From: Streptomyces sp. WGS_02
GTDB lineage: Bacteria; Actinomycetota; Actinomycetes; Streptomycetales; Streptomycetaceae
Reading direction: 5' to 3'
NCBI GenBank assembly: GCA_040989845.1
Contig: JAYMFZ010000004.1
Location: 2,656,824 to 2,688,823 of the forward strand
Length of the DNA: 32,000 nt
Shown here: positions 4,070 through 27,943 of the stretch, in pieces
How positions within the stretch are numbered: the first letter of the stretch is position 1
Layout: every line of letters starts with the position of its first letter
Made by a program: the position numbers and the translations under genes
The notes under the pieces: model-generated
Told to the model about the DNA's origin: nothing
What the model saw: the letters and a program-made list of their open reading frames with translations, nothing else
Database searches by the model: none

Positions 4070-4752
4070 TTCCCGAAGGCTCCCTGCTCGCCGCGCACGA
4101 TCTGCGCAAGACCTACGGTTCGACGCCCGCCCTGGACGGCGCGTCGTTCTCCGTGCACCCCGGCGAGGTCGTCGCCGTCATGGGCCCGTCCGGCTCCGGC
4201 AAGTCGACCCTGCTGCACTGTCTGGCCGGGATCATCACACCCGACTCCGGCACCATCACCTACGCGGGCCGCGAGCTGTCCGCGATGTCCGACGCCGAGC
4301 GCAGCGCCCTGCGCCGCAGCGACTTCGGCTTCGTCTTCCAGTTCGGCCAGCTCGTCCCCGAGCTGACCTGCGTGGAGAACGTCGCCCTGCCGCTGCGGCT
4401 CAACGGCGTGAAGCGCAAGGCCGCCGAGCGCACCGCACGCGCGTGGATGGAGCGCCTGGAGGTCGACGACCTCGGCTCCCAGCGCCCCGGCGAGGTCTCC
4501 GGCGGGCAGGGCCAGCGGGTCGCCGTGGCCCGTGCGCTGGCGGCGTCGCCGAAGGTGATCTTCGCCGACGAGCCGACCGGCGCGCTGGACTCGCTCAACG
4601 GCGAGCGGGTGATGGAGCTGCTCACCGAGGCCGCCCGGTCCGCCAACGTGGCCGTGGTCCTGGTGACCCACGAAGCCCGGGTCGCCGCCTACTCCGACCG
4701 TGACGTCACCGTGCGCGACGGCCGGGCCCGGGATCTGGAGCACGCGGTATGA
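4066..4752 (+). CDS. ABC transporter ATP-binding protein (MacB/LolD/FtsE-like)
   Basis: GTG 4066 overlaps the PadR stop (GTGA). Walker A GPSGSGKST, signature VSGGQGQRVAVARAL, Walker B VIFADEPTGALD and H-loop VLVTHE are present. Only the last 228 codons of track ORF 3088..4752 are real. Confidence 0.93.
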   Translation: MIPEGSLLAAHDLRKTYGSTPALDGASFSVHPGEVVAVMGPSGSGKSTLLHCLAGIITPDSGTITYAGRELSAMSDAERSALRRSDFGFVFQFGQLVPELTCVENVALPLRLNGVKRKAAERTARAWMERLEVDDLGSQRPGEVSGGQGQRVAVARALAASPKVIFADEPTGALDSLNGERVMELLTEAARSANVAVVLVTHEARVAAYSDRDVTVRDGRARDLEHAV

Positions 4753-7147
4753 CGCTGCTCGACTCCCGTACGGCACCGCCCGCCGCACCGGAGAGCCCGC
4801 AGCCGCCCTCGCGCGGCGCGGCGGTCCTCCGCGACCTCGGCCTCGGCGTCCGGTTCGCCGCCGCCGGTGGCCGCGAGGGCTGGATCCGTACGCTACTGAC
4901 CGCCGTCGGCGTCGGCCTCGGTGTGGCGCTGCTGCTGCTCGCCTCCTCCGTACCGCATCTGCTCGACGAACGCGGCGCACGCGAGGCCGCCCGCAGCGAG
5001 ACCCGGATCTCCGACTCACCCGACACGAACGCCGCGACGTCGGACAGCTCGGTGGTGCGCATCAACGCCACGTCCGAGTACCGGGACCGGACGGTCGCCG
5101 GGTATCTGATGCGCGCGGACGGTTCGGCGCCGGTCCTGCCGCCGGGGGTCGACCGCTTCCCGGCGGCGGACACCATGGTGGTCTCCCCCGCGCTGAAGGA
5201 GCTGCTGAGCAACCCGGGCAACGAGCTGCTGCGCGAGCGGCTGCCGTACGAGATCACCGGCACGATCGGGGACGCCGGGCTGCGCTCCCCCAACGAACTC
5301 CTCTACTACGCGGGCAGCGACACCCTGACGCCCGCGAAGGGCGGTCACCGCATCGGCGGGTACGGGGACTCCCGCGAGGGCGATCCCCTGCCGCCGCTGC
5401 TGATCGTGCTCGTCGTCATGGTCTGCGTCGTGCTGCTGGTGCCGGTGGCGATCTTCATCGCCACCGCCGTGCGCTTCGGCGGCGACCGCCGCGACCGCCG
5501 GCTGGCCGCGCTGCGCCTGGTCGGTGCGGACATCCGGACGACCCGGCGGATCGCCGCCGGGGAGGCGATGTTCGGCGCGCTGCTCGGGCTGCTGATCGGT
5601 CTGGCGTTCTTCCTGGTGGGCCGGTTGTTCGTCGGCGCGGTGGAGATCTGGGACGTCAGCGCGTTCCCCGCCGACCTGGTCCCCGACCCCCGGCTCGCCC
5701 TCCTCATCGTGGTGGCGGTGCCCCTGACCGCCGTCCTCGTCACCCTGGTCGCGATGCGGTCCGTGGTGATCGAGCCGCTCGGCGTCGTACGCCGGGGCCG
5801 CGAGCGGGGCCGCCGGCTCCGGTGGCGGCTGCTGATGCCCGCGGCCGGACTCGCGGTGCTCGCCGTGACGGGCCGCACCAACGGGTACGAGCCGGTGAAC
5901 CCCTTCGCCATAGCCTCGGGCGCGGTCCTGGTGCTGGTCGGCCTCGCACTGCTGCTGCCCTGGCTGGTCGAGGCCTGTGTGAACCGGCTGCGCGGCGGCC
6001 CGGTGCCCTGGCAGCTCGCCACCCGCCGGCTCCAGTTGAGCAGCGGGGCCGCGTCCCGCGCGGTCAGCGGGGTGACGGTCGCGGTGGCCGGGGCGATCGC
6101 CCTGCAGATGCTGTTCGCCGCGATGAACGCCGACTTCCACCGGGTGACCGGCCAGGACCCCTCGCGGGCCCAGTTCGCCGCGTACTCCGAGGACGTCACC
6201 GGCGAGGCGGCCACCTCGGCCATCGAACAGTTCCGTGCCACCCGGGGCGTGGACGTGGTGATCGGATCGGTGGAGGCGTACGCGACCAAGCCCGGGAACT
6301 ACACGGACGACGAGATCCAGCCCACCACCTCGCTGACCGTCGGCACCTGCGCGACCCTGCGCGAACTGGCCCGGATCGACCGGTGCGAGGACGGCGACGC
6401 CTTCGTCGTCCACCCCCGAACAACAAGGACCAGGCGGGCTGGGTGGACCGGACCGCACGCAAGGGCGAGACCGTCCTGATCGGCGAGGGCATGGGCCGCA
6501 AGCCGTTCCGGTGGACGCTGCCGGCCGACGCGCCGACCGTGACCGGCCGCAAGGACCCCATGGGCGAGGTGCACTGGGGAATCATGGCGACCACGGGCGC
6601 GCTGGACGCGGGCAAGCTGCCCGGCGCCACGATCGTCGCCCAGATCCGGGTCGACGAGAGCGTGCCGGACGTCGCCGAGCACGTACGCAACACGGCGGTC
6701 GGGATCGACCCCGGGATGCGCTTCAGCGAGCTGAACCCGGTGGCGCGCGACCGTCAGTACGACAGCGTGCAGACCGGCCTCCAGGTCGGCGCGACCGTGG
6801 TGCTGCTGCTGATCGCCGCGTCGATGCTGGTCTCCCAGCTGGAGCAGTTGCGTGAGCGCAGGCGGCTGCTGTCGGTGCTGGTCGCCTTCGGCACCCGGCG
6901 CTCCACGCTCGGCTGGTCGGTGCTGTGGCAGACCGCCGTGCCGGTGGCGCTCGGACTGGTGGTCGCGGTCGCGGGCGGCCTGGGGCTCGGCGGGACGCTC
7001 GCCTGGATGATCAGCAAGTCGGTGGCCGACTGGTGGCTGTTCTGGCCGATGGTGGGCGCCGGGGGCGCGCTGATCGCACTGGTGACGCTGCTGTCGCTGC
7101 CGCCGCTGTGGCGGCTGATGCGCCCGGAGGGGCTGCGCACCGAGTGA
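4749..7147 (+). pseudogene. ABC transporter permease with two FtsX domains, frame broken by an apparent 1-nt deletion in a C-run
   Basis: ATG 4749 overlaps the ATPase stop (ATGA). The N-terminal part is track ORF 4749..6479. The C-terminal part (…NNKDQAGWVDRTARKGETVLIGEG… to the second FtsX domain …LSVLVAFGTRRSTLGWSVLWQTAVPVALGL…) is in the frame of ORF 4700..7147. The frames join at CACCCCCGAA (C5 at 6413-6417), and adding one C gives ...DAFVVHPPNNKDQ.... Total length is 2399 nt, which is 2 mod 3. Confidence 0.85.
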
Positions 7148-7160
7148 CCTCCGCGTGATC

Positions 7161-7206
7161 CGTGTACGGCCGGGGCTCCTGAGGACGGGAGCCCCGGCCG
7201 TGTACG
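7161..7206. terminator. Bidirectional terminator hairpin between convergent permease and oxyR
   Basis: CGTGTACGGCCGGGGCTCC (7161-7179) / 8-nt loop / GGAGCCCCGGCCGTGTACG (7188-7206), a 19-bp stem including two wobble positions. Confidence 0.6.
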
Positions 7207-7208
7207 TC

Positions 7209-8200
7209 TCAGTCCTGGTCGGGGCGGTCCACCGGCCGCACCGGCAGCGGCTTCATCGCCTCGCGCAGGGCGGCCGCGAACTCCTCGAACTCGCCGCCCC
7301 GCGCCGACCCGGTCCGCATCGCCAGCGCCAACCGCCGGGTGGGCGCCGGGTCCGCGAAGTACCCGGTGGCCAGCGCGTCGTTGCGGCCGGTCTCCACCGT
7401 CACGGCGGTGCGCGGCAGCAGGGTCACGCCGAGCCCGCCGGCGACCAGTTGCACGAGGGTGGAGAGCCCGGCGGCGGTCGTGGTGACCGGCGCGCCCCGG
7501 GTGCGGCCGGCCTCGCGGCAGATGTCCAGGGCCTGGTCGCGCAGGCAGTGCCCCTCGTCCAGGAGCAGCAGCGGCAGTTCGCGCAGCGCGTCCCGGGGAT
7601 GTCCGCGCGGCCGCCGAGCCAGTGGTCCTGCTCCATGACCAGCACGAAGTCCTCGTCGAAGAGCGGGATCTCGGTGACGCCCGGCACTCCGAGCGGCACG
7701 GCGAGCAGCAGCAGGTCCAGACGCCCGGCGGCGAGCCCTTCGAGCAGCGAGGAGGTCTGCTCCTCGTGGACCTGGAGGTCGAGGTCCGGGTACCGCTCGT
7801 GGACGAGGCGGAGCACGGTGGGCAGGAGATACGGGGCGACGGTCGGGATCACGCCGAGCCGGAGGACTCCGGTGAACGGGGCCCGGACCGCCTCCGCCTC
7901 CTCCATCAGCGCGGCGACGGCCTCCAGGACCGCCCCGGCCCGCACCGCGAGCCGCTCCCCCGCGGGCGAGAGCAGCACCTTGCGCGTCGTACGCTCGATG
8001 AGCTGGACACCCAGTGCCTCCTCCAGGGTGGACACCGCTCCGGAGAGTGCCGGCTGACTCATCCCGATTGCTGCCGCCGCGTCCCGGAAGTGCAGATGTT
8101 CCGCCACGGCCGTGAAGGCCCGCAGCTGGGACAGGCTGGGCTGCTTGACGGGTGACTTAACGGACTGCTTGGGGCGTACGCCCTGATTCACCTGGGTCAC
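7209..8200 (-). pseudogene. oxyR: LysR-family peroxide regulator OxyR, frame broken by an apparent 1-nt deletion
   Basis: GTG 8200 with GGAGG 9 nt upstream. The HTH is LSQLRAFTAVAEHLHFRDAAAAIGMSQPALSGAVSTLEEALGVQLIERT (ORF 7424..8425). The C-terminus (MQLVAGGLGVTLLPRTAV...) is in ORF 7209..7454. Restoring one nt at TCCCGGGGAT (7591-7600) gives ...[34 protein letters not shown].... Length is 992 nt (2 mod 3). The gene is divergent from ahpCD, as in Streptomyces. Confidence 0.85.
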
Positions 8201-8333
8201 TGATAGGTACCTCCGATCATCCGGACCGAGTGTAGCTATTTCTGTGATCAATGCACTCTGTGCCAGGGTGGGAGCCGTCCAACCCTCAGGAAGACCCCCA
8301 AAAAGGGAATTCCAGACGTTGCAAGGAGAGCGC
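8201..8333. promoter_or_regulatory. oxyR-ahpC divergent promoter/operator region
   Basis: Locally AT-richer intergenic region with ATAG (8203-8206) and TAGCTAT (8233-8239) elements resembling OxyR/LTTR ATAG-N7-CTAT half sites. The ahpC RBS AAGGAGAG is at 8323-8330. Confidence 0.45.
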
Positions 8334-8888
8334 GTGCTCACTGTCGGTGACAAGTTCCCCGAGTTCGACCTGACTGCTTGTGTCTCGCTGGAGAGCGGCA
8401 AGGAGTTCGAGCAGATCAACCACAAGACCTACGAGGGCAAGTGGAAGATCGTCTTCGCGTGGCCGAAGGACTTCACCTTCGTGTGCCCGACGGAGATCGC
8501 CGCCTTCGGCAAGCTGAACGAGGAGTTCGCCGACCGCGACGCGCAGATCCTCGGCTTCTCCGGTGACTCCGAGTTCGTGCACCACGCCTGGCGCAAGGAC
8601 CACCCGGACCTGACCGACCTGCCTTTCCCGATGCTGGCCGACTCGAAGCACGAGCTCATGCGTGACCTCGGCATCGAGGGCGAGGACGGCTTCGCCCAGC
8701 GCGCCGTCTTCATCGTCGACCAGAACAACGAGATCCAGTTCACGATGGTGACCGCCGGTTCCGTGGGCCGTAACCCCAAGGAGGTCCTGCGGGTCCTCGA
8801 CGCCCTGCAGACCGACGAGCTGTGCCCGTGCAACTGGACCAAGGGCGAGAACACCCTCGACCCGGTCGCGCTCCTCTCGGGCGAGTGA
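8334..8888 (+). CDS. ahpC: Alkyl hydroperoxide reductase subunit C (2-Cys peroxiredoxin)
   Basis: VLTVGDKFPEFDL...KWKIVFAWPKDFTFVCPTEI (peroxidatic Cys) ...DELCPCNWTKGENTL (resolving Cys). GTG 8334 follows the AAGGAGAG RBS. The track start 8244 is too far upstream. Confidence 0.95.
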   Translation: MLTVGDKFPEFDLTACVSLESGKEFEQINHKTYEGKWKIVFAWPKDFTFVCPTEIAAFGKLNEEFADRDAQILGFSGDSEFVHHAWRKDHPDLTDLPFPMLADSKHELMRDLGIEGEDGFAQRAVFIVDQNNEIQFTMVTAGSVGRNPKEVLRVLDALQTDELCPCNWTKGENTLDPVALLSGE

Positions 8889-8900
8889 GCTGATACCGAC

Positions 8901-9434
8901 ATGGCTCTCGACGAACTGAAGTCCGCCGTACCGGACTTCGCCAAGGACCTGAAGCTGAACCTCGGTTCGGTCATCGGCAACAGCGACCTCCCGCAGCAGC
9001 AGCTGTGGGGCACCGTGCTGGCCTGCGCGATCGCCTCGCGATCGCCGAAGGTGCTGCGCGAGCTGGAGCCCGAGGCGAAGGCCAACCTCTCCGCCGAGGC
9101 GTACACCGCGGCGAAGTCGGCCGCCGCGGTCATGGCGATGAACAACGTCTTCTACCGGACCCGGCACCTGCTGTCGGACCCGGAGTACGGCACGCTCCGC
9201 GCGGGCCTGCGGATGAACGTCATCGGCAACCCGGGCGTGGAGAAGATCGACTTCGAGCTGTGGTCGCTCGCCGTCTCCGCGATCAACGGCTGCGGCCAGT
9301 GCCTGGACTCGCACGAGCAGGTGCTCCGCAAGGCCGGCGTGGACCGCGAGACCATCCAGGAAGCCGTCAAGATCGCTTCGGTGATCCAGGCGGTCGGTGT
9401 GACCCTCGACGCCGAGGCCGTACTCGCCGAGTAG
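8901..9434 (+). CDS. ahpD: Alkylhydroperoxidase AhpD (carboxymuconolactone decarboxylase family)
   Basis: 177-aa ORF 12 nt after ahpC. CXXC active site in [14 protein letters not shown]. Confidence 0.93.
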
Positions 9435-9472
9435 TGACACCGCACCACCCCTGACCCACCTGGGTACGAGAG

Positions 9473-9506
9473 GAGCCCCGGGGACGAGAGACCGTCCCCG
9501 GGGCTC
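9473..9506. terminator. Bidirectional terminator hairpin between ahpD and the AI-2E transporter
   Basis: GAGCCCCGGGGACG (9473-9486) / loop agagac / CGTCCCCGGGGCTC (9493-9506), a 14-bp perfect stem followed by TTCC. Confidence 0.7.
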
Positions 9507-9530
9507 TTCCGCGTGTTCCGTGCCGCTCCG

Positions 9531-10924
9531 CTACTCCGGCGACGGCGGGTTCTCCCGCGGGCGTTCGGCCGGCGCGTCCTGCGGGCCCGGACCGGGTGGT
9601 GCGGGCGTGGCCCCGGCGGGCACCGGGTTCATCGAGAGAGCCGTGGATCCGGTGCGCCCGCCGCTCCCGCCCGGGGGCCCCGGCGTCGCGTACGAACGCA
9701 GGTAGACCACAACCGTGTTGGTCACCGCGACCAGCGGTACAGCCACCACCGCGCCGCCGATGCCCGCGACGAGCCCGCCGGTCGCCACCGCGAGGACCAC
9801 CGCGAGCGGATGCACCCGGACGGCGCGGCCGAGGATGAACGGCTGCAGGATGTGGCCCTCGATCTGCTGCACGGCCAGGACCACCACCAGCGCCCACAGC
9901 GCCGTCCATACGCCTTCGGTGACCAGGGCCACGACCACGGCGAGCGCTCCGGAGACCACGGCTCCGACGAGCGGGATGAAGGCGAACAGGAAGATGAAGA
10001 CGGCCAGCGGCACCGCGAGCGGCACGTTCAGGACGTAGAGGCCGAGGCCGATGAAGATGGCGTCGATCAGGGCGACGAGCACCGTGCCCCGTACATAGGC
10101 GGTCAGGGTGCGCCAGGCGCGCGGTCCGGCCCCGGCGACGCCCGGACGGGCCGCGGCGGGCACCAGCTTGAGCGACCACTCCCAGATGCGGCGGCCGTCG
10201 TAGAGCAGGAACAGCGTGGAGAACATCGCCAGCAGCAGCCCGGTGAGGAACTCCACCATCACCGTGACGCCCTGGAGCCCGGCGGAGGTGATCTCCTCGG
10301 TGTTGGTGCCGATGGTGTCGCTGAGGTTCTTGGCGATGTCGTTGATCTGCGACTCGGTGACGTGGAACGGGCTGTCGAGCGCCCAGCGCTTCAGCTCGTC
10401 GATACCGTCCCGGACCCGGTCGGAGAGCGTGTCGAGGTTCTCCATCACCTGCCACACCACGAACCAGCCGACCAGGCCGATGATGACGAACCCGAGGACG
10501 GCGGTCACGGCGGTGGCGAGCCCGTGCGGCAGCCCGAACCGCTTGAGTCGGACCACCGTGGGCTGGAGCATCGCGGTGATGAGCAGAGCGGCCGAGAAGG
10601 CGAGCACCACCAGCTCCACGGCGGTGATCACCCGCATCAGCACCCAGAGCGTCCCGGCGAGGACGAGGAGGCGCCAGCCGGCCTCCGCGGCGACCCGCAT
10701 CCCCCACGGAATCGCCGCCACCGGATCCGGCTTGGCGGCGACCGAGGGGGCGTAGCTGGGGGCGCGGGCACCTGCCCCGCTTCGTCGTCGACGTCGGGGA
10801 CGGCCCCCTTCGCCGTGAACGGTTCATCGTCGGCGGCGGCTCTCGCCCGACGCTCGTCCAGGCGTGCGCCCAGCTCCGTCAGTTCGGACCCGAAGCGGCC
10901 CAGCCAGCCCGGCAGTTTTGACAT
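9531..10924 (-). pseudogene. AI-2E family (PerM/UPF0118) transporter, frame broken by an apparent 1-nt deletion in a G-run
   Basis: ATG 10924 (GGAAGGAAAG RBS) gives MSKLPGWLGRFGSELTELGARLDERRA...EAGQVPAPP in the frame of ORF 10637..11305. The body (…SYAPSVAAKPDPVAAIPWGMRVAAEAGWRLLVLAGTLWV… with 8 TM helices) is ORF 9531..10721. The switch is at GGGGG 10758-10762. Length is 1394 nt (2 mod 3). Confidence 0.85.
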
Positions 10925-11070: not shown

Positions 11071-11790
11071 CTAATACCAGTTGTTGGCCTGCCAGAAGGA
11101 CCAGGCGCCGCACGGGGAGCCGTAACGGCCGTCCATGTAGCTGAGGCCCCACTTGATCTGGGTGGCCGGGTTGGTCTGCCAGTCGGCGCCGGCGGACGAC
11201 ATCTTGGAGCCCGGGAGCGCCTGCATCAGACCGTACGCCCCGGAGGACGGGTTGGTCGCGCGGTAGTTCCAGGTCGACTCGTGGTTCACGATGTTGCTGA
11301 AGCACTGGAACTGGTCGGCGGGGACCATCTGACGGGCCATCGCCTGGACCTCGGCCACGGAGTACGAGCCCTGGGCCGCGAACGAGGAGGCGTCGCGGAC
11401 GGAAGAGCGGCTGGCGCGCTCGGCCTCTTCCTTTTCCTTCTTCTCCGCCTCGGCCTTGCGCTCGGCCTCGATCCGGTCCTCGGCCGCCTGCTTCTTGGAC
11501 TTGGCGTCCTTGGCGGCCTGGATGCGGGCGGATTCCTCGGCCGACTTCTTCGCGGCGGCGTCGGCGGCGGACGCCTGGGCGTCGGCCTGCTGCGTCAGCG
11601 AAGCGGTCTGGACCTGGGCCTGCTGGCCCGCGGGGATGTCTGCGAGCAGCGTGGTGTCGGCTGCGGCCGCCTCGAAGTTGTTGTCGTCGGCGGCAGGTGT
11701 GCCGCCCGCAGCAACGCCTACGACGGCGCCTACGGTGGTGACCGCGGTGGCGGATGCCACGGCGAACCCCCGGACCGAGATCCGGCTCAC
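11071..11790 (-). CDS. Secreted lytic transglycosylase-like cell-wall hydrolase (signal peptide + Ala/Lys/Glu coiled linker + C-terminal transglycosylase domain)
   Basis: GTG 11790 follows GGAAGGA (alternative ATG 11808). Signal peptide VSRISVRGFAVASATAVTTVGAVVGVAAG. C-terminal domain: FSNIVNHESTWNYRATNPSSGAYGLMQALPGSKM...WQTNPATQIKWGLSYMDGRYGSPCGAWSFWQANNWY. Confidence 0.85.
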   Translation of the reverse strand: MSRISVRGFAVASATAVTTVGAVVGVAAGGTPAADDNNFEAAAADTTLLADIPAGQQAQVQTASLTQQADAQASAADAAAKKSAEESARIQAAKDAKSKKQAAEDRIEAERKAEAEKKEKEEAERASRSSVRDASSFAAQGSYSVAEVQAMARQMVPADQFQCFSNIVNHESTWNYRATNPSSGAYGLMQALPGSKMSSAGADWQTNPATQIKWGLSYMDGRYGSPCGAWSFWQANNWY

Positions 11791-11808
11791 ATGGTGTCCT
11801 TCCAGCAT

Positions 11809-11949
11809 CGCCCGCTTAGGTGACCTCGCGGGCGCGTTCGTGCCCCTGGCACTGGCCTCCCTACTGCGTGGGTCACGGGAGGCACGGGCCCGATGGGCAA
11901 CCCCGGTGAGGAGGCTGCCGCGTGGTGCTCGCGGGCGGCATACGGGCGT
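11809..11949 (-). promoter_or_regulatory. Candidate ydaO-type (cyclic-di-AMP) riboswitch in the transglycosylase leader
   Basis: Minus-strand RNA: ACGCCCGU...GGGGUUGCCCA...CCUCCCGUGACCCACGCAGUAGGGAGG...GUGCCAGGGGCACGAACGCGCCCGCGAGGUCACCUAAGCGGGCG, followed by the RBS GGAAGGA. The ends pair (CGCCCGU/GCGGGCG, P1-like). Elements resemble ydaO GGGGACCCA, GGGGUGAAUC and AGCUAACCUCGUAAGCG. The match is imperfect and was not verified with a covariance model. Confidence 0.35.
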
Positions 11950-12179
11950 CTTGTGTTGAGTTGTGTGGTGCGTGGCGCCTCTGGAGGTGCCCAAGTGCCG
12001 TATGCGGGGCCTGACGGAAGCAAGACTCTGCCGGACGGGGACGCGTGGAGGCAATTCTGTGTTGCGTGGGAAACGTCACACCCCGTTTGGCCCATCGGTT
12101 TTGCGGAAATGACGGCGCAGCACAATGCAGCCCGGCTAAGATCCTTGGCTCGCCGGGCGGCATGAAGGGGACATGCGGG

Positions 12180-13479
12180 TCAGATGTGGCCCTCCTCCAG
12201 CATTTCGGTCACCAGTGCGGCGATCTGCGAACGCTCCGACCGCGTGAGCGTGACGTGCGCGAACAGCGGATGCCCCTTCAGCTTCTCGACGACGGCGACG
12301 ACTCCGTCATACCGGCCGACCCGGAGGTTGTCCCGCTGGGCCACGTCATGGGTGAGCACGACACGCGAATTCGCCCCGATTCGGGACAACACGGTCAGCA
12401 GGACGTTCCGTTCGAGCGACTGCGCCTCGTCGACGATCACGAACGCGTCGTGCAGCGAGCGGCCGCGGATGTGGGTGAGCGGCAGGACCTCCAGCATCCC
12501 GCGCCCGAGCACCTCCTCGATGACCTCGCGTCCGGCGACCGCCGAGAGCGTGTCGAAGACCGCCTGCGCCCAGGGGCTCATCTTCTCGGCCTCGCTGCCG
12601 GGGAGATAGCCGAGCTCCTGCCCGCCCACCGCGTACAGCGGGCGGAAGACCATCACCTTCTTGTGCTGCTGCCGCTCCAGCACGGCCTCCAGGCCCGCGC
12701 AGAGGGCCAGCGCGGACTTGCCGGTGCCCGCGCGTCCGCCGAGCGACACGATGCCGACGTCGCTGTCGAGGAGGAGGTCGAGCGCGATCCGCTGCTCGGC
12801 GCTGCGCCCGTGGATGCCGAAGGCCTCCCGGTCGCCCCGCACGAGGCGGACGTTGCCCTCGGCCGTCACCCGGCCCAGCGCCTTGCCGCGCTCGGACTGG
12901 AGGACCAGGCCGGTGTGGACGGGCAGCTCGGCGGCCTCGGGGACGTACAGCGTCTCCTCGCTGAACAGCAGGTCGATCTGTTCCCCGGCGAGGGACAGTT
13001 CGCTCATACCGGTCCAGCCGGAGTCGGTGATGGCGAGCTCGGCGCGGTACTCCTCGGCGAGGAGGCCGACGGAGGACGCCTTGATTCGGAGGGGCAGGTC
13101 CTTGGAGACGACCGTGACGTCGTACCCCTCGGCCTGGAGGTTGCGTGCGACCGCGAGGATCCGTGAGTCGTTGTCCCCCAGCCGATAGCCGGCGGGCAGT
13201 ATGCCGGGATCGGAGTGGTTGAGTTCGACACGGAGCGACCCGCCCAGGTCCCCGAGCGGGATCGGGGCGTCCAGCCGGCCGTACCGGACCCGGAAGTCGT
13301 CCAGCAGGCGCAGGGCCTGGCGGGCGAAGTAGCCGAGCTCGGGATGGTGCCGCTTGGCCTCCAGCTCCAGTGACCACCACGATCGGCAGCACGACTTCGT
13401 GCTCGTCGAAGCGGGCCATGGCGCCGGGGTCGGCCAGCAGGACGCTGGTGTCGAGAACGTATGTGCGCCGGTCGGGCAT
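12180..13479 (-). pseudogene. PIN-domain / PhoH-like ATPase (PhoH2), frame broken by an apparent 1-nt insertion
   Basis: ATG 13479 gives [37 protein letters not shown] (PIN, frame of ORF 12346..13707). The sequence then continues as [24 protein letters not shown]...[16 protein letters not shown]...MSELSL...[12 protein letters not shown] (Walker A)...VIVDEAQ in the frame of ORF 12180..13007. The junction is ACTGGAG, with the extra G at 13367-13368. Length is 1300 nt (1 mod 3). Alternative GTG starts are at 13500 and 13503. Confidence 0.85.
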
Positions 13480-13830
13480 GCGGCGCTTGATGCTGTTCAC
13501 CACGGAAGGACGTACCCCCTCGGACGAGGTCGGGGAGTGCGACGGACGGTCGCGGAGCTTCCCGAAGGGAGAGGACGGACCGGGATCGGGCCCTCGTGCG
13601 CGGGCCTGACCGCGGCCACCGCGTCGGCCGCACGCTGCGTACGGTCCTTCGTGTGCAAAGGGCCTCCCGGGCGAGCGGACTGGGTGCCGCTCACTTGGTG
13701 ACGACATCCGCCTGGTTGATGACCGGATGCCGACCTGTCAGGGGTATTCCCTATTCGAACCGAAGCCATGCCGCCGCATATGACACGGCGTGGAGAAGTC
13801 CCGGTGGCCGCCCGATGACGCCCTGGTGGT

Positions 13831-14601: not shown

Positions 14602-14856
14602 CCTCTCGGTTCCGTACGGGCCGGGGCCCGCCCTCCCCGTCGCCGGGGGTAACAGGGGACGTCCCCCGCCGGGGCTCGCTCGCACGACCCGCGCCGCTCG
14701 CACGATCCCTGGGCGGTCCGCGCCTCTACCACCGGCACGGGCCACGCGGGCCATCGCCGCGCCGCACATCGGCATTCCCCGAAGCCGCCACATTACTGCG
14801 AGCGGGTCATCAGGGCCCAACCCGGTCTGTCACAACTCCGTGATAAGCAGAGAAAC

Positions 14857-16003: not shown

Positions 16004-16110
16004 AAAAACGGGCCGGTCCGTGGGGGGGATACGGACCGGCCCGAGGGGGGTTTCCACCATAACCCTTCGTAAGTGCCGGCGCGTGCCACGCCACTCCATC
16101 ATTACTCTCC
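16004..16110 (-). ncRNA. Candidate small RNA with two C-runs and an intrinsic terminator (6C-like)
   Basis: The minus strand reads ...GGUUAUGGUGGAAACCCCCCUCGGGCCGGUCCGUAUCCCCCCCACGGACCGGCCCGUUUUUCG. It has a 13-bp perfect stem (16009-16021 / 16030-16042) with a C7 loop, a U5 tail, and a C6 run just upstream. No credible CDS lies upstream on that strand, and GC is locally lower over 16043-16140. The 5' end is undefined. Confidence 0.3.
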
Positions 16111-16301
16111 GCATATGCCAGACTCCGCTGCGGGCAGGCCCCGCCCCAAGTCGGCACCGGCCTCCGAGCCCCTTCCCGGCCCGTTATCGGCCTCCGTATC
16201 GAGGGGTCGCCGGGCATCGCCGCCTTGACGCGGCCGGGGCGCACGCGCCGGGGGCACGGAGGAGGACAGGAGCTGACCTCAAGGGCCTCTAGGTTCGGGG
16301 C

Positions 16302-17501
16302 ATGACGACACGACCCCCCGCGCCCGGGCCCGCGACTGCCGCCGTGACCGTGACCTGGGCCGGGGCGAACGCCCGGCGGCTGGCCCGGCAGCACCTCCAC
16401 CCGGACGCCGCCGCCACCGCGTCGCCCTTCGCCGAGCCGGGCGACGCGGTGGCCGCGATGCTCGGCGCGCACGCCCAGGTGCTGTCGGCGGCCGAGCTGT
16501 CCGTGGGGCTGCGCGGGGACGGGCTGACCCGCACGGACGTCCGTACGGCGCTGTGGACCGACCGGACCCTGGTGAAGACGTTCGGGCCGCGCGGCACGGT
16601 CCACCTGCTGCCCGCGGTGGACCTCCCCCGGTGGACCGGGGCCCTCTCCGCCGTACCGACGGGCCCGAACCCCTTCCCCGAGAACGCCCGGATGACCCCG
16701 GACCAGGTGGAGGCGGTCGTCGCGGCGGTCGGGGACGCGCTGGCCGGGGCGGAGCTCACGATCGACGAGCTCTCGGACGAGGTCGTCGCGCGGACCGGGC
16801 CGTGGGCCGGGGACCTGGTGATGCCCGGGTTCCAGGCGATGTGGCCGCGCTGGCGGCAGGTCCTGCATCTGGCGGGCCACCGGGGCGCCCTCGCCTACGC
16901 CCCGAACCGGGGCCGGAAGGCGACGTACACGAACCCCGGATGCACCCCGCTGCCGGGCTCCGGGGCGCTGCCCGCCCTGATCGAGCGGTACCTGTACGCC
17001 TACGGGCCGGCGACCCCCGCCCACTTCGCCCGGTGGCTCGCGGCACCGAAGCGCTGGGCGGCCGAGCAGTTCGCCGCCCAGGCCGCATCGGGGGCGATCG
17101 AGGAGGTGACGTTCGGGGAGGACGGACCGGCGTGGGTGGTCGCGGGTGACACGGACTTCCCGGACGCGCCGGTGCGGGGTGTGCGCCTGCTCCCCTACTT
17201 CGACGCGTTCGCCATCGCCTCGGCCCCCCGCGAGCGGCTGTTCCCGGGCGCTGCGTGGGAGCGGGCTCTCGGCGGTGGACAGGCGGGGAACTTCCCGGTG
17301 CTGCTGGTGGACGGCGTGGTGGCGGGCGTCTGGCACCAGCGCCGCTCGGGCCGCCGGATCGCGGTGACGGTGGAACCCCTGAAGCCGCTGACCGGGGCGC
17401 GGCTGCGGGACCTGGAGGAGCAGGTGGAGCGGGTCGCCACGATCATGGAGGGGACGGCGGAGCTGACGGTCGGCCCGGTGACGGTGGGGCCGCACGCGTA
17501 G
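16302..17501 (+). CDS. Winged-helix DNA glycosylase of the AlkZ/YcaQ (HTH_42, DUF1006) family
   Basis: 399-aa ORF with ...ARRLARQHL...AAMLGAHAQVLSAAELSVGLR..., WTDRTLVKTFGPRGTVHLLP, ERYLYAYGPATPAHFARWL, NFPVLLVDGVVAGVWH. This is the typical family architecture, with an H-A-Q catalytic-type motif. Confidence 0.8.
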   Translation: MTTRPPAPGPATAAVTVTWAGANARRLARQHLHPDAAATASPFAEPGDAVAAMLGAHAQVLSAAELSVGLRGDGLTRTDVRTALWTDRTLVKTFGPRGTVHLLPAVDLPRWTGALSAVPTGPNPFPENARMTPDQVEAVVAAVGDALAGAELTIDELSDEVVARTGPWAGDLVMPGFQAMWPRWRQVLHLAGHRGALAYAPNRGRKATYTNPGCTPLPGSGALPALIERYLYAYGPATPAHFARWLAAPKRWAAEQFAAQAASGAIEEVTFGEDGPAWVVAGDTDFPDAPVRGVRLLPYFDAFAIASAPRERLFPGAAWERALGGGQAGNFPVLLVDGVVAGVWHQRRSGRRIAVTVEPLKPLTGARLRDLEEQVERVATIMEGTAELTVGPVTVGPHA

Positions 17502-17502
17502 G

Positions 17503-17723
17503 GGCGGGGGTGCGCGCGTACGGGGGGCATGCGCGGGGCGTGGCGGGGTGAGGCGGGTGCGCGGGCCGGCGGAGGCGGGTGCGCGGGCGGAGGCGGGTGC
17601 GCGGGCCGGCGGAGGCGGGTGCACGGGCGCGCGGGCGGAGGCGGAGGCGGGCGCGCGGGCGGAGGCGGGCGCGCGCGGGGTGAGGCGGGATCGCGGGCGG
17701 AGGCGGGTGCACGGGCGGAGGCT
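17503..17723. repeat. GC-rich imperfect tandem repeat (18-nt core GAGGCGGGTGCGCGGGCG, about 9.5 copies)
   Basis: Units start at 17550, 17572, 17590, 17612, 17638, 17644, 17662, 17682, 17700 and 17718, with 4-8 nt insertions in some. Degenerate copies lie at 17503-17549. The array sits in the convergent gap between the genes ending at 17501 (+) and 17737 (-). Confidence 0.85.
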
Positions 17724-22108: not shown

Positions 22109-22137
22109 GGCCCCGGCCCCCCGTACGGGCCGGGGCC
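22109..22137 (-). terminator. Hairpin just downstream of the 22147 gene
   Basis: GGCCCCGGCCC / cccgtac / GGGCCGGGGCC, an 11-bp perfect stem 10 nt after the stop on the minus strand. Confidence 0.5.
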
Positions 22138-22146
22138 AACCGGCTC

Positions 22147-22743: not shown

Positions 22744-23033
22744 CGACGCCCACCCCCATCGCTCTCGTCGTCACGATCGCTCTCGCTCCGCGCCCGGCGT
22801 CGTGGTCGGCGACCCCCGGCACCCACGAGCGTACTGAGCGGCGGCCGGGGCTGCGTGGGCCCACGGACCCACGGCCGGCCCCCGGCACAACGGCCTCCGC
22901 GCCCCGGCGCAACACCCCTGACGTGCACCGGACTTGGGCCCGGCTTTGGGACCGGGGGCCCGGGACGTGGCAGGTTTTCGGCCGTACGCTCTCGGCCGTC
23001 GGCAACACGCGCGGGTCGAGGAGAGGGTGCACC

Positions 23034-25073
23034 GTGAGCGGTGACGGGGGCGCAGACCGGGGGCGGGCCCGGGGAGACCGGAGCGCGGGACACATACCGC
23101 TGGGACGCCACGGCATCGCCGGTTCCGGTGTCCCGCACCCGCCCCAGCAGGGCAGCCGTTTCTTCGCGTTGACCCGGAGCTGGGTGATCGGCGGCCTGGT
23201 CTACCTCGCCCTCGGGTTCGTCATGAGCCGGGTCCTGGTCGATCTGCTGGCCACCGAGGAGCGGCTGGAGGCGTTCGGCTGGCGGCTGGCCCTGCTCCAC
23301 CTGCCCGCCCTCGTCGTGACGCTGCTGACGGTGCTGGCGGCGACCCGCGTCCTTCCCGAGGAGCACCGCGAGTCCTCCCGCACGGTGTATCTGCTCGCGG
23401 CCCTGGTCGTACCGCTGGCCGGGCTGCTGTACGGCTTTGCCGTCGCGGGGGACGTCGTCGGCATCGAGGGCCTGCTCATGCCCGCCGCGTCCCTGGCGGC
23501 GGGCGCGGCGTCGGGGGTGGCCGTCGACCGGCTGCTGGAGGAGCGCGCCACGCGCGCCCCGGAGCCGCCCCGGTACGCGTACAACTGGCGGGACAGCGGT
23601 GCGACGGCGATGGAGTACCTGGGTCTCGTCGTCCTCGTCACGATGCTGATCGGCGCGATGGCGATGGCAGGGGTCGGCGGCAAGATCGGGGAGCGGCTGC
23701 GGTGTGCGATCAGCTCGCTGGCCGGTGGCGGCGGCTCCTGTGCGTCCGGCGGCCAGGACCCCGAGGCCAAGCCGAAGACGGACGCGGACTACGAACCGAA
23801 GATGTGCCAGGTCTCCAGCATCTCGGACACGGCGGGCGGGAAGGTCAAGATCGGCTGGTTCGAGTGGGGCGAGGAGTACGGCTTCCAGCAGAAGGTCTCC
23901 CAGGCGAGTACCGATGTGAACGGCGACGGCACGGTCGACGGCAAGGACAAGATCGTCTCGATGACGTTCACCGACGCCGCGTCCGCCGGGGCCACCGCCA
24001 GTACACCGGGCGTCAAGCTCGGCAGCCTGGGCAAGGCGGATGTCGACATCGGCGGCGGCATCAAGATCACCAACGGTGACACCTGGATCTTCGCGAGCGA
24101 GGAGGAGGCTCAGCGGATGCGGGACGACATCGAGGAGATGAAGATGTGGGAGACCTCCACCAAGCACAGCGGCGGCTACGGCGGCGGCTGGTACTCCGCG
24201 ATGAAGTGGGCGGAGAAGAAGGAGGACATCGAGAAGAAGATCGGCGACAAGAAGATCTCCTACTCGACCGTCGGCCTCAACGCCTACGCGGACGGCGGCC
24301 TCTCCGTCAAGGGCGGCGACGAGGACGAACTGGGCGCGAAACTCGGGGGCAAGGCGACGTTCTCGCCCGAGGTGACGATCACCAAGGACGACGTGAACGG
24401 CAACGAGTCGTCCACGTACACCGCCAAGCTCGAACTGGAGGGCAAGGCCGGCGGGAACGTGGGTCCGGTCAAGGGCACGGTGGGCGGCAAGCAGAGCCGT
24501 ACCGGCGCCATCACCGTCACCCGCGACCAGAAGACCGGGAAGATCGTCCGGATCGACATGACACAGACCGTGGAGAGCGGTTCGACGTCCGGCAAGGTCG
24601 AGGTCGGCGGCGACAACGGCGAGAGCGGCCAGGACAAGCGGGGCGGCAAGGGCAGCGCGTCGGACTCCTCGGGCGGGACGGGCATCGACGTCGTGACGAA
24701 CTCGATCGTCTTCGGCAAGGACACGGACGCGGCGACCGAGGCCAAGCGGGGCATCGCGGAACAGTGGCTGGACGGCTCCGGCAACAACACGGCCCCCTTC
24801 GAGTACCTCTTCGGCGACCACGGCATGGAGAACCGCCCGGACGGCAACGACCCGTTCCAGCAGCTGATGTTCGAGGACGGGCTGTCCAGCACCCTGCGGT
24901 ACACGGGCGAGAGCGACGCCCAGGAGTTCGGCTTCGAGATCTCCCTCGGGATGAGCCTCGGGTTCTCCCTCTCCACGGAGGAGAAGAAGGAGACACTGAC
25001 GGACGCGCAGTTCCTCGGGGCGCCGCGGGGCGACGCGCGCACGTATCTTCCGTACAGCTACTGCGCGAACTGA
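23034..25073 (+). CDS. Membrane protein with an internal Flp-pilin-like module and a large Lys/Gly/Asp-rich C-terminal domain (orphan)
   Basis: GTG 23034 follows GGAGAGGG. Four predicted TM helices lie in residues ~55-175. Then comes PRYAYNWRDSG|ATAMEYLGLVVLVTMLIGAMAMAGVGGKIGERL (G at 23598-23600), clearly homologous to the Flp pilin at 30144..30374. About 440 aa of beta-rich, K/G/D/E/T-rich sequence follows, ending YSYCAN. GC3 supports one continuous frame. An alternative internal start is ATG 23478 (GAGGG RBS). Confidence 0.7.
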   Translation: MSGDGGADRGRARGDRSAGHIPLGRHGIAGSGVPHPPQQGSRFFALTRSWVIGGLVYLALGFVMSRVLVDLLATEERLEAFGWRLALLHLPALVVTLLTVLAATRVLPEEHRESSRTVYLLAALVVPLAGLLYGFAVAGDVVGIEGLLMPAASLAAGAASGVAVDRLLEERATRAPEPPRYAYNWRDSGATAMEYLGLVVLVTMLIGAMAMAGVGGKIGERLRCAISSLAGGGGSCASGGQDPEAKPKTDADYEPKMCQVSSISDTAGGKVKIGWFEWGEEYGFQQKVSQASTDVNGDGTVDGKDKIVSMTFTDAASAGATASTPGVKLGSLGKADVDIGGGIKITNGDTWIFASEEEAQRMRDDIEEMKMWETSTKHSGGYGGGWYSAMKWAEKKEDIEKKIGDKKISYSTVGLNAYADGGLSVKGGDEDELGAKLGGKATFSPEVTITKDDVNGNESSTYTAKLELEGKAGGNVGPVKGTVGGKQSRTGAITVTRDQKTGKIVRIDMTQTVESGSTSGKVEVGGDNGESGQDKRGGKGSASDSSGGTGIDVVTNSIVFGKDTDAATEAKRGIAEQWLDGSGNNTAPFEYLFGDHGMENRPDGNDPFQQLMFEDGLSSTLRYTGESDAQEFGFEISLGMSLGFSLSTEEKKETLTDAQFLGAPRGDARTYLPYSYCAN

Positions 25074-25080
25074 ACGGGCG

Positions 25081-25767
25081 GTGACGGAGTCGATGAGCAC
25101 GGCGATGAGCACAGCGATGAGTCCGGCGATGAGCACAGCGATGAACTCGGCCATGAGGACCAGGACGCGGAACATGCGGACAGCCCCGGGGCGGATGACG
25201 GCTGCGGCGGCGGCCGTCGCGGCGGCGGCCGTGCTGCTGACCGGATGCGGCGGCGACGCGGACAAGGCCTCCGTGCCCGAGGGCTGGGGCACGTTGGAGA
25301 CCGACAGCCTGAGCGTCGGCTACCCGAGGAGTGAGGGGTACGCGGAGCAGCCCGCGGGCGAGCGGGCCAAGGCCAACGCGGCCGTCGCGCTCAAGGAGGA
25401 GAACGGCATCCGGACCGGCATGGTCTCGGTCCAGCGGGACTTCGCCACGGGGGTGCACGACGCGGCCGGGGCGGCGGCAGCAGCGGGCGCGGGCATCGGC
25501 CTCAACTCCACCCGCAAGGCGACGGACGACGTACGCCTCGCGGGCCCGGACGACGCCGGCGAAGGCCGCGAAGCGCGCCGGATCGACTACGACTTCACGG
25601 CGGACGGCCGGGAGGACACCCCGAACAGGGGGACGCCGATGACCGGGGTCCTGGTCGCGGGGGTGGACTCGAAGGGTGTTCCGTTCGTCGTGCGCCTGAA
25701 CGCGGTGAAGGACGCGGTGGAGGCGGAGGACCTGGACGCGTTCGTGGGGTCGATCACGGTGAAGTAG
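25081..25767 (+). CDS. Lipoprotein of unknown function
   Basis: Lipobox AAAAVLLTG|CGGD. The start is ambiguous: GTG 25081, the ATG ladder at 25093-25153, or ATG 25174, which gives a canonical 25-aa signal (MRTAPGRMTAAAAAVAAAAVLLTGC). The gene starts 8 nt after the stop of the Flp-module protein, so it is probably co-transcribed. Confidence 0.7.
   Translation: MTESMSTAMSTAMSPAMSTAMNSAMRTRTRNMRTAPGRMTAAAAAVAAAAVLLTGCGGDADKASVPEGWGTLETDSLSVGYPRSEGYAEQPAGERAKANAAVALKEENGIRTGMVSVQRDFATGVHDAAGAAAAAGAGIGLNSTRKATDDVRLAGPDDAGEGREARRIDYDFTADGREDTPNRGTPMTGVLVAGVDSKGVPFVVRLNAVKDAVEAEDLDAFVGSITVK
25091..25162 (+). repeat. 12-nt tandem repeat (CGATGAGCACRG, 5-6 copies), each unit containing an in-frame ATG
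   Basis: Units at 25091, 25103, 25115, 25127, 25139 and 25151 encode MSTA MSTA MSPA MSTA MNSA M at the 5' end of the lipoprotein ORF. Confidence 0.85.
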
Positions 25768-25789
25768 GGGACGGCGAGGACCGGTTGGG

Positions 25790-26401
25790 ATGTTCGACGG
25801 CGACCGGCCCTATCTCCCGAGCGACGCCCTGGACCGGGAGGCGGCCGAGGTCGTCGCGCGGGCGGCGGGAGCGGAGGATCCGGGGGCGGTGGTGGACCCG
25901 GACTCCGTGGAGTCGCCGGCCCGGGCGGCCCGCCGCCTCCCGCCGTGGCCCGACACCGTGGCGGGGCTCGCCCGCCTCGCCGGGCGCTTCCCGCTGATCG
26001 GCCTGTCCAACGCGAGCCGGACGGCGCTGCCGGAGCTGAACGCCCACGCCGGGCTGCGCCGGCACCAGGCGCTGTCCGCGCAGGACGCCCGTACGTACAA
26101 GCCGGATCCGGCGGTCCACCGGCTCGCCGTCACCTTCGCCGGGCTGCCGCCGGAGCGCCTGCTGATGGTCGCCGCCCACGCCTGGGACCTGCGCGGCGCG
26201 CAGGCGCTGGGGCTGCGCACGGCGCATGCGGCCCGCCCGGTCGGCGACCCGCCCACGCCCTCGGACCGCTTCGACCTCCATGCCGAGGACCTGACGGATC
26301 TGGCGGGTCAGCAGGGGGCATCCTGGGGACGGGGGAACACGGCGCTCCTCAGCTCAGCGGGCAACCGAGCGGGAGGACGCGTTCGGTCAGCCGGCCGGTG
26401 A
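25790..26401 (+). CDS. HAD-superfamily (haloacid dehalogenase type II-like) hydrolase, N-terminally short/degenerate, possible remnant
   Basis: LPPWPDTVAGLARLAGRFPLIGLSNAS...TYKPDPAVH...LLMVAAHAWDLRGAQALGLRTA matches HAD motifs II-IV. The protein starts MFDGDR, with no normal DxDxT context and a short cap region. The last ~90 nt have poor GC3 and overlap the convergent gene by 53 nt. Confidence 0.5.
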   Translation: MFDGDRPYLPSDALDREAAEVVARAAGAEDPGAVVDPDSVESPARAARRLPPWPDTVAGLARLAGRFPLIGLSNASRTALPELNAHAGLRRHQALSAQDARTYKPDPAVHRLAVTFAGLPPERLLMVAAHAWDLRGAQALGLRTAHAARPVGDPPTPSDRFDLHAEDLTDLAGQQGASWGRGNTALLSSAGNRAGGRVRSAGR

Positions 26402-27943
26402 GGAGGGTGTCGGTGACGTCGGCCTCCGCCAGCCAGTCCGCGGCGGTCAGCCGGTCCACGAGGTCCGGCAGGTCGGCGGGGTCGACGGAGCACCCGGAGG
26501 ACAGGGCGTCCAGGCCGACGCCCTCCCCTCCGGGCCCCAGCCGCCCTTCGCCGTCGGAGCCGGTGGCCAGGGCCAGGGCGAGAAGCCGTACGTCGGCGCC
26601 GGTCTTGCCCTTGCGGAGCTTCTTCTCCCCGACGACCCGCTGGGCCCATCCGCTGAGCTTGGGGCGCAGCTTCCTGCCGAACGTGAACGGCCCCGGGTCG
26701 TCCTCGTCGGGCGTGAGGGACGGCACGCTGATCCGGGTGGGGCTCTCCGGGCGGGAGGCGATCAGTTCCTCGACGGTCCCGGAGATACCGAGCCAGCCGG
26801 ACTCGACCAGCTGCCCCACCAGGTGCTCGGGATCCTGCAGGGGCAGCCCCTTGATGTCCTGCCCGACCAGATTGCCGACCCCGGACTGCGCGGTGCGCAG
26901 CGTCACCATCAGCACCAGCAGGCGCGCCTCGGCTCCCGGCAGGGGGCGTTCTCGGCCACGTGGGCCAGGACGGCTCGGGCGTGGTTCCACTGCGCGGGGG
27001 CGGTCAGCAGCCGTACGACGGCGTGCCCTTCGCCGTCCGGGGCCTGGCCGATGCGGTGCAGATGCTGGAGGCGGGCGGTGGCGGCGGCCTGTTCGGCCCG
27101 CTGGGCGTCGAGGCGCAGCCCGGTGTCGGCGGTGACCTCGGCCCAGGCGCTGAAGGCCTCCGCTTTACGCGCGTGGAGGTCGGCGAGCATCGCGAGGTCG
27201 GGTTCGGTGCGGGCCTGGTAGGCGCGGAAGAGTTCGCCGAGCTCGGTGAGTTCGTCCCGGAGCGCGACGGGCCGCAGGTCGTGGGGGACGAGGCGCTGAG
27301 CGATCCTCCCGCGCGGGTGCCGCTTCCGCGTCGGCCTCGCGGACCGGGGGGCGGAGCGGGGCGACGACGTCTGTTGGGGGACGGCGGTGGCCGTGGTGGT
27401 GGCGGCGCTGTGCGAGAAGTGCGGGCTGATCGCCGAGAAGGTCGGCGTGTGGACCGCGGGGGCCGCGGGAGCTGCGGTCCCGGCCCGGGGCCCGTCGTTC
27501 CTGGCCGGTGCCTCGGTGGCGGCCGGAGCGGTGGCGACGACCTTCGCGGTGGGGTGGGCGGCGGCGCAGCGCGAGCAGCACTCCATGACCTGCCACCAGC
27601 GCCCTTCCCGGTCCGTGATGACGGCCAGGACGACCGCTCCCCCGCACCGCCAGGGCACGGGGCGCTCACGCGGCCCGGCGGGCCGGATGTGCGTATGGCA
27701 CTCCTCGGCCCGACAGGCGCAGTGCACGGAGGGGCGGGGGGCGGGGCCGGCGCGCAGGTGGGCCTTGAGGTGCGCGATCGCCGCCGTGCGGCCGGCGGCG
27801 GCGGAGGGCAGCACCTGCGCCGCGCAGGCCGGGCGGCTGCACGAGACGCGTACGTCCGCACGACCGCGGCCGACCGGGTCCAGCCGCACCGTCCACCGGC
27901 GTCCCGTCACGCGTTCGTTCGTCGCGTGGGCCTCCACACCCAT
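26349..27943 (-). pseudogene. Cys/His-rich orphan protein (~531 aa), frame broken by an apparent 1-nt deletion in a G/C-run
   Basis: ATG 27943 follows GAGGAAGG. The N-terminus has CSRPAC...HLKAH...CACRAEECHTH...CC..C, followed by an Ala/Pro/Thr linker and a helical C-terminal half. ORF 26909..27988 (…AVLAHVAENAP) joins ORF 26349..26990 (LPGAEARLLVLMVTLRTAQSG…) when one nt is restored at GGGGG 26942-26946. Length is 1595 nt (2 mod 3). Confidence 0.6.

Follow-up and report, generated by a model that had tools for sequence, protein, structure and literature searches.

Frame breaks in five genes of a Streptomyces chromosome segment are very probably consensus errors of the assembly

Mass pseudogenisation, as in Mycobacterium leprae and recently host-restricted bacteria, leaves the essential translation genes intact, brings further stops and deletions, and produces lesions that are common to related strains. 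The contingency tracts of Neisseria, Campylobacter and Haemophilus are usually at least 8 nt long, are conserved among strains and occur in surface and restriction genes only. The genome studied here, that of a Streptomyces sp. (7.76 Mb in 4 contigs, a near-complete chromosome), resembles the former in carrying many frameshifted genes in one genome, and the latter in that the reading frame switches when a G/C run gains or loses one base. Unlike in mass pseudogenisation, however, rplC, rplE and fusA are affected here, secondary decay is absent and every lesion examined is private; unlike contingency loci, the tracts are 4-5 nt long, correspond to interrupted sequence in relatives and fall in random targets. 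One of the affected genes also belongs to a described arrangement, the Streptomyces oxyR-ahpCD divergon known from S. coelicolor. The same organisation is found here, with a LysR-type OxyR-like gene divergent from the neighbouring ahpC-ahpD genes, for an AhpC-like peroxiredoxin and AhpD, but the regulator lies in two frames. This is very probably an artefact, and therefore loss of OxyR must not be inferred.

The closest parallel is technical. Gene-fragmenting indel errors in long-read and flow-based bacterial assemblies are well documented and are addressed by Kastor (BMC Genomics 2025; PMC12007338). Our genome shares with such errors the single-base, mostly homopolymer deletions that split conserved genes genome-wide (PMC12007338), together with lowered marker completeness, inflated pseudogene counts and full coding signal in the halves of the split genes; it differs from typical errors of this kind in that a minority (PhoH2 +1, rplE -2) lie off G/C runs.

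Five frame breaks in the window

The window, the whole stretch of 32,000 nucleotides that was analysed, had been described in a first-pass annotation as containing five conserved genes, each broken by one indel. All five breaks were found where it had placed them (Table 1), by sequence, by GC3 frame plot and, at all but the AI-2E site, by mapping of open reading frames from the closest relative (G005), with Pfam as additional evidence at the FtsX permease, oxyR and PhoH2; the four run contexts that it had listed (C5, CCCGGGG and two of G5) were recovered as well. Its statement that coding GC3 is strong on both sides holds, with values of at least 0.9 at the breaks except for about 0.85 upstream of 10761. 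The claimed absence of added stops or decay was borne out by this GC3 (at least 0.9) and by identities of 76-98% on both sides of the breaks. Secondary decay and lesions in sister genomes, the marks of genuine pseudogenes, were looked for at the five genes and neither was found; none of the relatives compared has the same breaks (90 genomes for PhoH2, 10 each for oxyR and the AI-2E transporter, 8 for FtsX and 2 for the hypothetical protein). The closest relative is a species representative and a single-contig assembly with breaks of its own. It is not a clean reference, and polarity was therefore set via GC3 phase and multi-genome alignments. A milder form of the same indel problem is seen in that assembly.

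Table 1. Affected genes in the window and the sites at which their frames are broken.
Feature	Position	Strand	Remarks
Double-FtsX (MacB-type) ABC permease gene	4749..7147	+	Two frames: 4749-6416, then 6419-7147; ~815 aa in relatives
C5 run in permease gene	6413..6417	+	One base fewer than G005 (CCCGCC there)
OxyR-like LysR regulator	7209..8150	-	N-terminal part ends 7595; C-terminal part 7598-7209 in other frame; start approximate
CCCGGGG in oxyR-like gene	7592..7598	+	One base fewer than 10/10 aligned relatives
AI-2E family transporter gene	9531..10924	-	Body 9531-10760; N-terminal extension from ATG 10924 to 10762, other frame
G5 run in AI-2E gene	10758..10762	+	One base fewer than G005 and G010 (GGGCGG there)
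PIN-PhoH2 gene	12180..13707	-	PIN start 13707 at most to 13369; PIN remainder + PhoH ATPase 13367-12180, other frame
Surplus base in PhoH2 gene	13369	+	A on +, T on coding strand; outside any homopolymer
Hypothetical Streptomyces protein ('Cys-rich orphan')	26349..27943	-	N-terminal part 27943-26946; C-terminal 26945-26349, other frame
G5 run in hypothetical gene	26942..26946	+	One base fewer than G005 homologue: CCCCGCTG there vs CCCC-CTG here

The permease pieces carry one FtsX domain each (Pfam). The 815-aa ORF of the closest relative maps to frame 3 with aa 12-573 and to frame 2 with aa 575-815, abutting at 6416/6419, and the permeases of 7 further relatives (8 genomes with G005) align in a single frame over approximately aa 43-815. 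A GC3 phase switch lies at the C5 run in the window and is absent in the closest relative. With two FtsX C-terminal domains, a length of ~800 aa and an adjacent ABC ATPase gene (4066-4749, LolD/MacB-like), the predicted product is a MacB-type permease. The OxyR-like regulator has an HTH_1 domain and a LysR_substrate domain, the latter cut at profile positions 93/99 (Pfam). Its ortholog in the closest relative, whose best NCBIfam match, OxyR, scores 242 bits and falls short of the cut-off of 329, maps onto two window frames abutting at 7595/7598, and all ten aligned relatives read CGCGCGGG or CGCGGGGA at this site, with one extra base.

The break in the AI-2E transporter gene stands as a frame break, but the domain itself is not broken: a single ORF covers positions 2-323 of the 327 of the AI-2E_transport profile (PF01594, E = 3e-60). 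What is cut off is solely a 55-residue extension at the N-terminus, itself conserved (MSKLPGWLG..., start ATG 10924-10922). This N-terminus, MSKLPGWLGRFG..., lies in the upstream frame in the window, is kept in 8 of 10 relatives and, at the protein level, is contiguous with the body in 10 relatives. The 'Cys-rich orphan' of the first-pass annotation is no orphan, since homologues of it exist in G005 and G004 as well as in other Streptomyces; a Pfam search returned no family for it. The homologue in the closest relative, located elsewhere in that genome, is an open frame of 663 aa, of which aa 132-470 match the window in frame -2 and aa 466-662 match it in frame -1, with the join at ~26940. No GC3 phase switch is seen in it, whereas one is present at the G5 run in the window, and the G004 homologue is likewise open across the break site.

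Of the five breaks, that in PhoH2 is the most atypical, being a +1 insertion off any run. Profile positions 1-31 of PIN_4 match the upstream piece, and PIN_4 34-132 with PhoH 2-203 of 205 the downstream piece (Pfam); a PIN domain at the N-terminus, fused to the PhoH ATPase, identifies the predicted protein as a PhoH2. The frames to which the ortholog of the closest relative maps abut at 13367/13369. The site had been given as an extra G in ACTGGAG. The location was right (CTCCAGT at 13365-13371 on the + strand), but the base was not: the simplest reading is A13369, a T on the coding strand, changing ACGGAG to ACTGGAG. The surplus base turns this part of the coding strand into a perfect CTGGAGCTGGAG tandem and is absent from all 10 relatives and from 80 of 80 loci in other Streptomyces species. 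The CTGGAG motif here may conceivably be linked to base-calling error related to methylation. The closest relative has a private 1-nt deletion of its own in PhoH2, at the window equivalent of ~12987, which is probably also an error, that genome being an error-prone single-contig assembly.

Apart from these five, the window showed no clear frame break. Candidates that were rejected are the 1-nt differences from the closest relative at 11908 and 12153, which fall in a length-variable stretch without coding GC3 upstream of a gene for an SLT-domain protein; that at 14621, which is compensated nearby and lies in an ORF that maps in a single frame; and an apparent break at 8898-8910, which is the natural junction of the ahpC stop and the ahpD start. 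A riboswitch was considered in the leader upstream of the SLT-domain gene, as ydaO precedes cell-wall hydrolase genes, but Rfam gave nothing there, whether at the gathering score or with E relaxed to 1.

Frame breaks across the chromosome

The first-pass annotation had proposed counting frameshifts genome-wide, testing their enrichment at G/C runs and comparing the sites with close relatives; all three checks favour assembly error. A GC3 phase-switch scan of the whole genome gave 516 frameshift-like sites, or 6.65 per 100 kb, compared with 10 sites in 507 kb (~2 per 100 kb) in multi-contig relatives. The 516 sites are evenly distributed along the chromosome, at 25-46 per 0.5 Mb. Their density equals that in the window, where the scan detected 3 sites against 2.1 expected, and five split genes among ~27 are within the genome-wide expectation (P = 0.24). 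The direction of the intrinsic GC3 events is biased (432 vs 84), but natural ATGA-type gene junctions show the same bias (712 vs 220) and confound it, so that it was used solely after background subtraction; the +1/-2 class then makes up ~13% of the inferred true events genome-wide. Counted against orthologous ORFs of the closest relative (tblastn, syntenic subset), 21 of 170 are split (12%), and in about 16 (9%) both pieces reach at least 50 aa, which places the frame-split share at ~9-12%. Within 286 kb aligned to the same relative, 15 strict breaks are private to our genome, 13 of them 1-nt deletions. The density of the breaks is independent of gene function and chromosomal region, core and arms being evenly affected. 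Marker completeness is 95.85% despite the assembly having 4 contigs, compared with 98-100% in most relatives.

The 1-nt deletions are strongly enriched at runs, with 16 of 17 at G/C runs of at least 4 (background 10.8%, p = 5e-15) and 10 of 17 at runs of at least 5 (background 2.8%). Real frameshifts, too, arise most often by homopolymer slippage, and sequence context alone does not discriminate between them and errors. In the whole genome, G/C runs number 19,869 (n=5), 1,642 (n=6), 33 (n=7), 1 (n=8) and 1 (n=11). Runs of 7 are strongly depleted, at 0.4 per 100 kb where relatives have 0.9-7.1, and aligned G/C runs of 6 vs 5 are asymmetric (27 vs 10). The genome-wide shortage of G/C runs of at least 7 is a measurement signature and not a biological one.

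The decisive result concerns essential genes. The sole gene for L3 (rplC) is frame-split at model position 149, the sole gene for L5 (rplE) at position 65 through a 2-nt deletion off any homopolymer, and the str-operon fusA (EF-G) at approximately residue 395. These breaks lie near chromosome positions 3,008,010 (rplC), 3,002,522 (rplE) and 3,015,205 (fusA). A second copy of L3 or L5 was looked for in this genome and none exists, and G005 (97% identical) and G008 (91%) have all three genes unbroken. Broken rplC, rplE and fusA are incompatible with viability, and therefore the frame breaks are indicated to be assembly artefacts. The rplE deletion shows further that the error process is not limited to G/C runs. 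Three more essential-gene probes, rpoB, rpoC and dnaE, were break-free, but zero breaks in their ~10.7 kb has a chance of about one half at 5-10 breaks per 100 kb and is hence uninformative.

Consensus error and its rivals

We propose that the five breaks are, with high probability, consensus-calling errors of the assembly and not mutations of the organism, in agreement with the first-pass annotation, which had favoured assembly error over multi-gene decay; the breaks are genome-wide, consist largely of deletions at G/C runs, are private and reach rplC, rplE and fusA. The assembly carries indels of one base by the hundred, for the most part deletions where G/C runs are short, a pattern characteristic of long-read or flow-based consensus sequence unpolished by accurate reads, the platform being our presumption; the window would be a plain sample of the genome-wide error rate. 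The cause is almost certainly base-calling or consensus error, as we infer for the set, no single site being proven an error.

An unlikely variant is a mixed case, in which the four G/C-run deletions are errors and the PhoH2 +1 at 13369 is genuine and inactivates PIN-PhoH2. Its appeal is that the insertion lies off any homopolymer, whereas 13 of the 15 sampled breaks are 1-nt deletions, that the exact tandem is of a form that replication slippage can make, and that the private deletion in the closest relative could hint at dispensability. However, +1/-2 events are a regular minority of the genome-wide events, the rplE deletion is likewise off any run, and the second PhoH2 break belongs to an assembly that is itself error-prone. 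That some breaks are real, most plausibly this one, with the strain and the closest relative having inactivated PhoH2 independently, is a very slim prospect; if true, the PhoH2 breaks would point to recurrent loss of an RNA-helicase/RNase module in one Streptomyces clade.

It is slightly less probable again that all the indels are real, slippage having lately eliminated the permease, OxyR, full-length AI-2E, PhoH2 and the hypothetical protein, as could happen in a mutator or after long passage in the laboratory. The sites are slippage-prone runs, their privacy implies recency and fits the absence of further decay, and no essential role is known for any of the five genes; but across the genome the same class of break recurs ~400 to 1,000 or more times, in core and arms evenly, the missing long runs are a signature of measurement, and the broken translation genes are incompatible with a living cell. 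Scarcely credible is the idea that the breaks are tolerated or programmed, with ribosomal frameshifting or transcriptional slippage at G/C runs restoring full-length proteins: at four of the sites there is a run of 4-5 G or C, and in endosymbionts slippage is known to rescue genes with long poly-A tracts, but the runs here are short, the PhoH2 site has none, no site is common to any relative, which leaves no conserved recoding signal, and the pattern extends over hundreds of unrelated genes, unlike the distribution of programmed recoding.

Consequences for annotation

With consensus error as the preferred explanation, the living strain most likely carries intact genes for the permease, the OxyR-like regulator, the AI-2E transporter, PIN-PhoH2 and the hypothetical protein. 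The value of the finding is in quality control only, as automatic annotation would call about one tenth of the genes split or pseudogenes. Claims, for example, that oxyR is disrupted beside intact ahpCD, that PhoH2 is lost or that the AI-2E transporter is truncated are unsafe without read-level confirmation. The GC3 phase-switch test, together with a multi-genome control, offers a quick reference-free flag for such assemblies in high-GC actinomycetes.

Frame and domain evidence at the five break sites

Five genes of the window are divided between reading frames, and all five breaks lie exactly where the first-pass annotation had placed them. In a sliding plot, the phase of high third-position GC (GC3) switches at each site, with GC3 of at least 0.9 on both sides except upstream of the AI-2E switch, where it is about 0.85. 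Pfam family domains are cut at the joins of the FtsX permease, the LysR regulator and PIN-PhoH2, unlike the AI-2E_transport domain, which is complete within one ORF; here the break removes a 55-residue N-terminal extension (MSKLPGWLG...), readable in the window's upstream frame and kept in 8 of 10 relatives. For the fifth, hypothetical gene the Pfam search returned no family. Its earlier description as an orphan does not hold, because homologues are found in G005, G004 and other Streptomyces.

The closest genome compared, the single-contig assembly G005, is syntenic and 88% identical over the region, and its ORFs of the permease, the regulator, PhoH2 and the hypothetical gene each map to two abutting window frames. 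Since the relatives are free of the lesions at the compared sites, all five are private to the WGS_02 assembly (G000); the same frame breaks, which had been expected to speak against assembly error, were found in none of them.

Coordinates of breaks and neighbouring features (window positions, GC3 phase switches for the first five; C4, main contig of G000)
Feature	Position	Observation	Relatives
FtsX permease	~6416	One FtsX domain per piece (Pfam)	Single frame in G005 and seven further relatives
OxyR-like regulator	7596	LysR_substrate split at profile positions 93/99 (Pfam)	One base more in 10/10
AI-2E transporter	~10761		N-terminus contiguous with body in ten
PIN-PhoH2	13369	PIN_4 split at 31/34, PhoH behind (Pfam)	One base fewer in 10/10, and in 80/80 other Streptomyces species loci
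Hypothetical gene	~26942		
rplE (L5)	C4:3002522	2-nt deletion	Intact in G005, G008
rplC (L3)	C4:3008010	1-nt deletion	Intact in G005, G008
fusA (EF-G), str-operon	C4:~3015205	1-nt deletion	Intact in G005, G008
LanKC	C4:~2509425 and 2509781	Two separate 1-nt deletions	Compared with G005
100-N run	C4:5132378-5132477	Only one in contig	
AhpC-like peroxiredoxin gene	8244-8888		
ahpD	8901-9434	TIGR00777, 308 bits	
SLT-domain gene	11071-12075		
Non-coding leader	11880-12160	Minus strand	Blocks conserved in 10
402-codon ORF	16293-17501		No counterpart in the matching G005 region

Essential genes and the genome-wide break rate

The decisive test for indel error in the assembly comes from a stretch of ribosomal protein and elongation factor genes (C4, 2.998-3.018 Mb). 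Identity here is 97% with G005 and 91% with G008, and rplC, rplE and fusA are broken in G000 alone. A whole-genome family search split the L3 match at model position 149 and the L5 match at position 65, and found no second L3 or L5 copy in G000. Mid-gene frameshifts in both sole genes are incompatible with a viable cell, and therefore the assembly does contain indel errors, of the very kind that divides the window's five genes. The rpoB, rpoC and dnaE genes are intact, which is unremarkable at the estimated break rate.

The window is not special in break density, and three independent measures agree on this. Firstly, a chromosome-wide sample of 286 kb from G005 was aligned to G000, keeping isolated indels of a length not divisible by three with clearly coding flanks in both genomes, each assigned to whichever genome's GC3 phase switches at the site; 15 breaks were private to G000 (13 one-base deletions, one 7-nt deletion and one insertion) and 6 to G005. 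Secondly, protein-level mapping found 21 of 170 G005 ORFs with a G000 ortholog (12%) split into adjacent frames, about 16 of them (9% of the 170) with both pieces at least 50 residues long; at this rate, five split among the window's ~27 genes has P = 0.24. Among the other genes that the sampling showed to be split are those for a DnaJ, a nucleotidase, a PBP2-type transpeptidase and a class III lanthionine synthetase (LanKC). Thirdly, a reference-free GC3 phase scan, supplying the genome-wide count that the first-pass annotation had proposed, detected 516 frameshift-like sites in G000, or 6.65 per 100 kb, versus 4.59 in the G005 sample and ~2 in multi-contig relatives (10 in 507 kb). The sites are evenly spread, at 25-46 per 0.5 Mb, alike in core and arms, with 3 detected in the window versus 2.1 expected. 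The highly conserved ribosomal region holds 3 coding breaks in ~16 kb, so the true rate is probably 10-20 per 100 kb, which would match the window's 5 in 32 kb.

The G000 assembly comprises 7.76 Mb at 72% GC in 4 contigs, the main one of 7.66 Mb and three unplaced ones of 22-43 kb; a single 100-N run in the main contig makes the chromosome a scaffold that is interrupted once. Marker completeness is 95.85%, low given such contiguity, and most relatives reach 98-100%.

Sequence context of the indels

The suspected enrichment at G/C runs is pronounced. Among 17 one-base deletions (13 sampled and 4 in the window), 16 touch a run of at least 4 (background 10.8%, p = 5e-15) and 10 a run of at least 5 (background 2.8%). 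G000 contains 19,869 runs of 5, 1,642 of 6, 33 of 7, one of 8 and one of 11; runs of 7 occur at 0.4 per 100 kb versus 0.9-7.1 in relatives, where runs of at least 8 reach ~1 per 100 kb. Where aligned runs differ as 6 versus 5, G000 is the shorter 27 times and the longer 10 times. This long-run compression stems from the measurement rather than from the organism.

Of the five breaks, the PhoH2 insertion departs most from the usual pattern: it lies away from any run, creates a CTGGAG tandem and belongs to the +1/-2 class, which accounts for ~13% of inferred events. One extra base is present, as first proposed, though most simply a T on the coding strand rather than a G; that it is a real mutation is very unlikely. 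Homologues of this gene among named records are all from Streptomyces. In G005, PhoH2 is hit by a different 1-nt deletion, private to that genome (window equivalent 12987-12989), and because of this and a raised break rate G005 appears to carry indel errors as well.

Interpretation of the breaks and neighbouring features

Judged from sequence comparison, consensus error in an assembly polished too little or not at all is the best explanation for the five breaks, each of them, taken singly, a probable error; we infer a long-read or flow-based platform. The assembly-error reading favoured by the first-pass annotation is thus supported by lesions that are private, genome-wide, at G/C runs and also in rplC, rplE and fusA. 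Gene-splitting indel errors in such assemblies are a known problem (PMC12007338).

Upstream of the SLT-domain gene, the leader carries conserved blocks around 11880-11900, 11925-11945 and 12125-12150, flanking a length-variable hairpin-like stretch; an Rfam search of the leader found nothing, either at the gathering score or with E values as high as 1. The stretch at ~16100-17700, to which the 402-codon ORF belongs, has no equivalent in the corresponding part of G005, syntenic apart from this; a small inserted segment or a variable island may account for it. The OxyR-like LysR gene is divergent from the AhpC-like peroxiredoxin gene and ahpD (7209-9434 in all), and the "disruption" of this regulator is probably an artefact. 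Statements that the strain has lost OxyR, PhoH2, the AI-2E transporter or the permease are not warranted.
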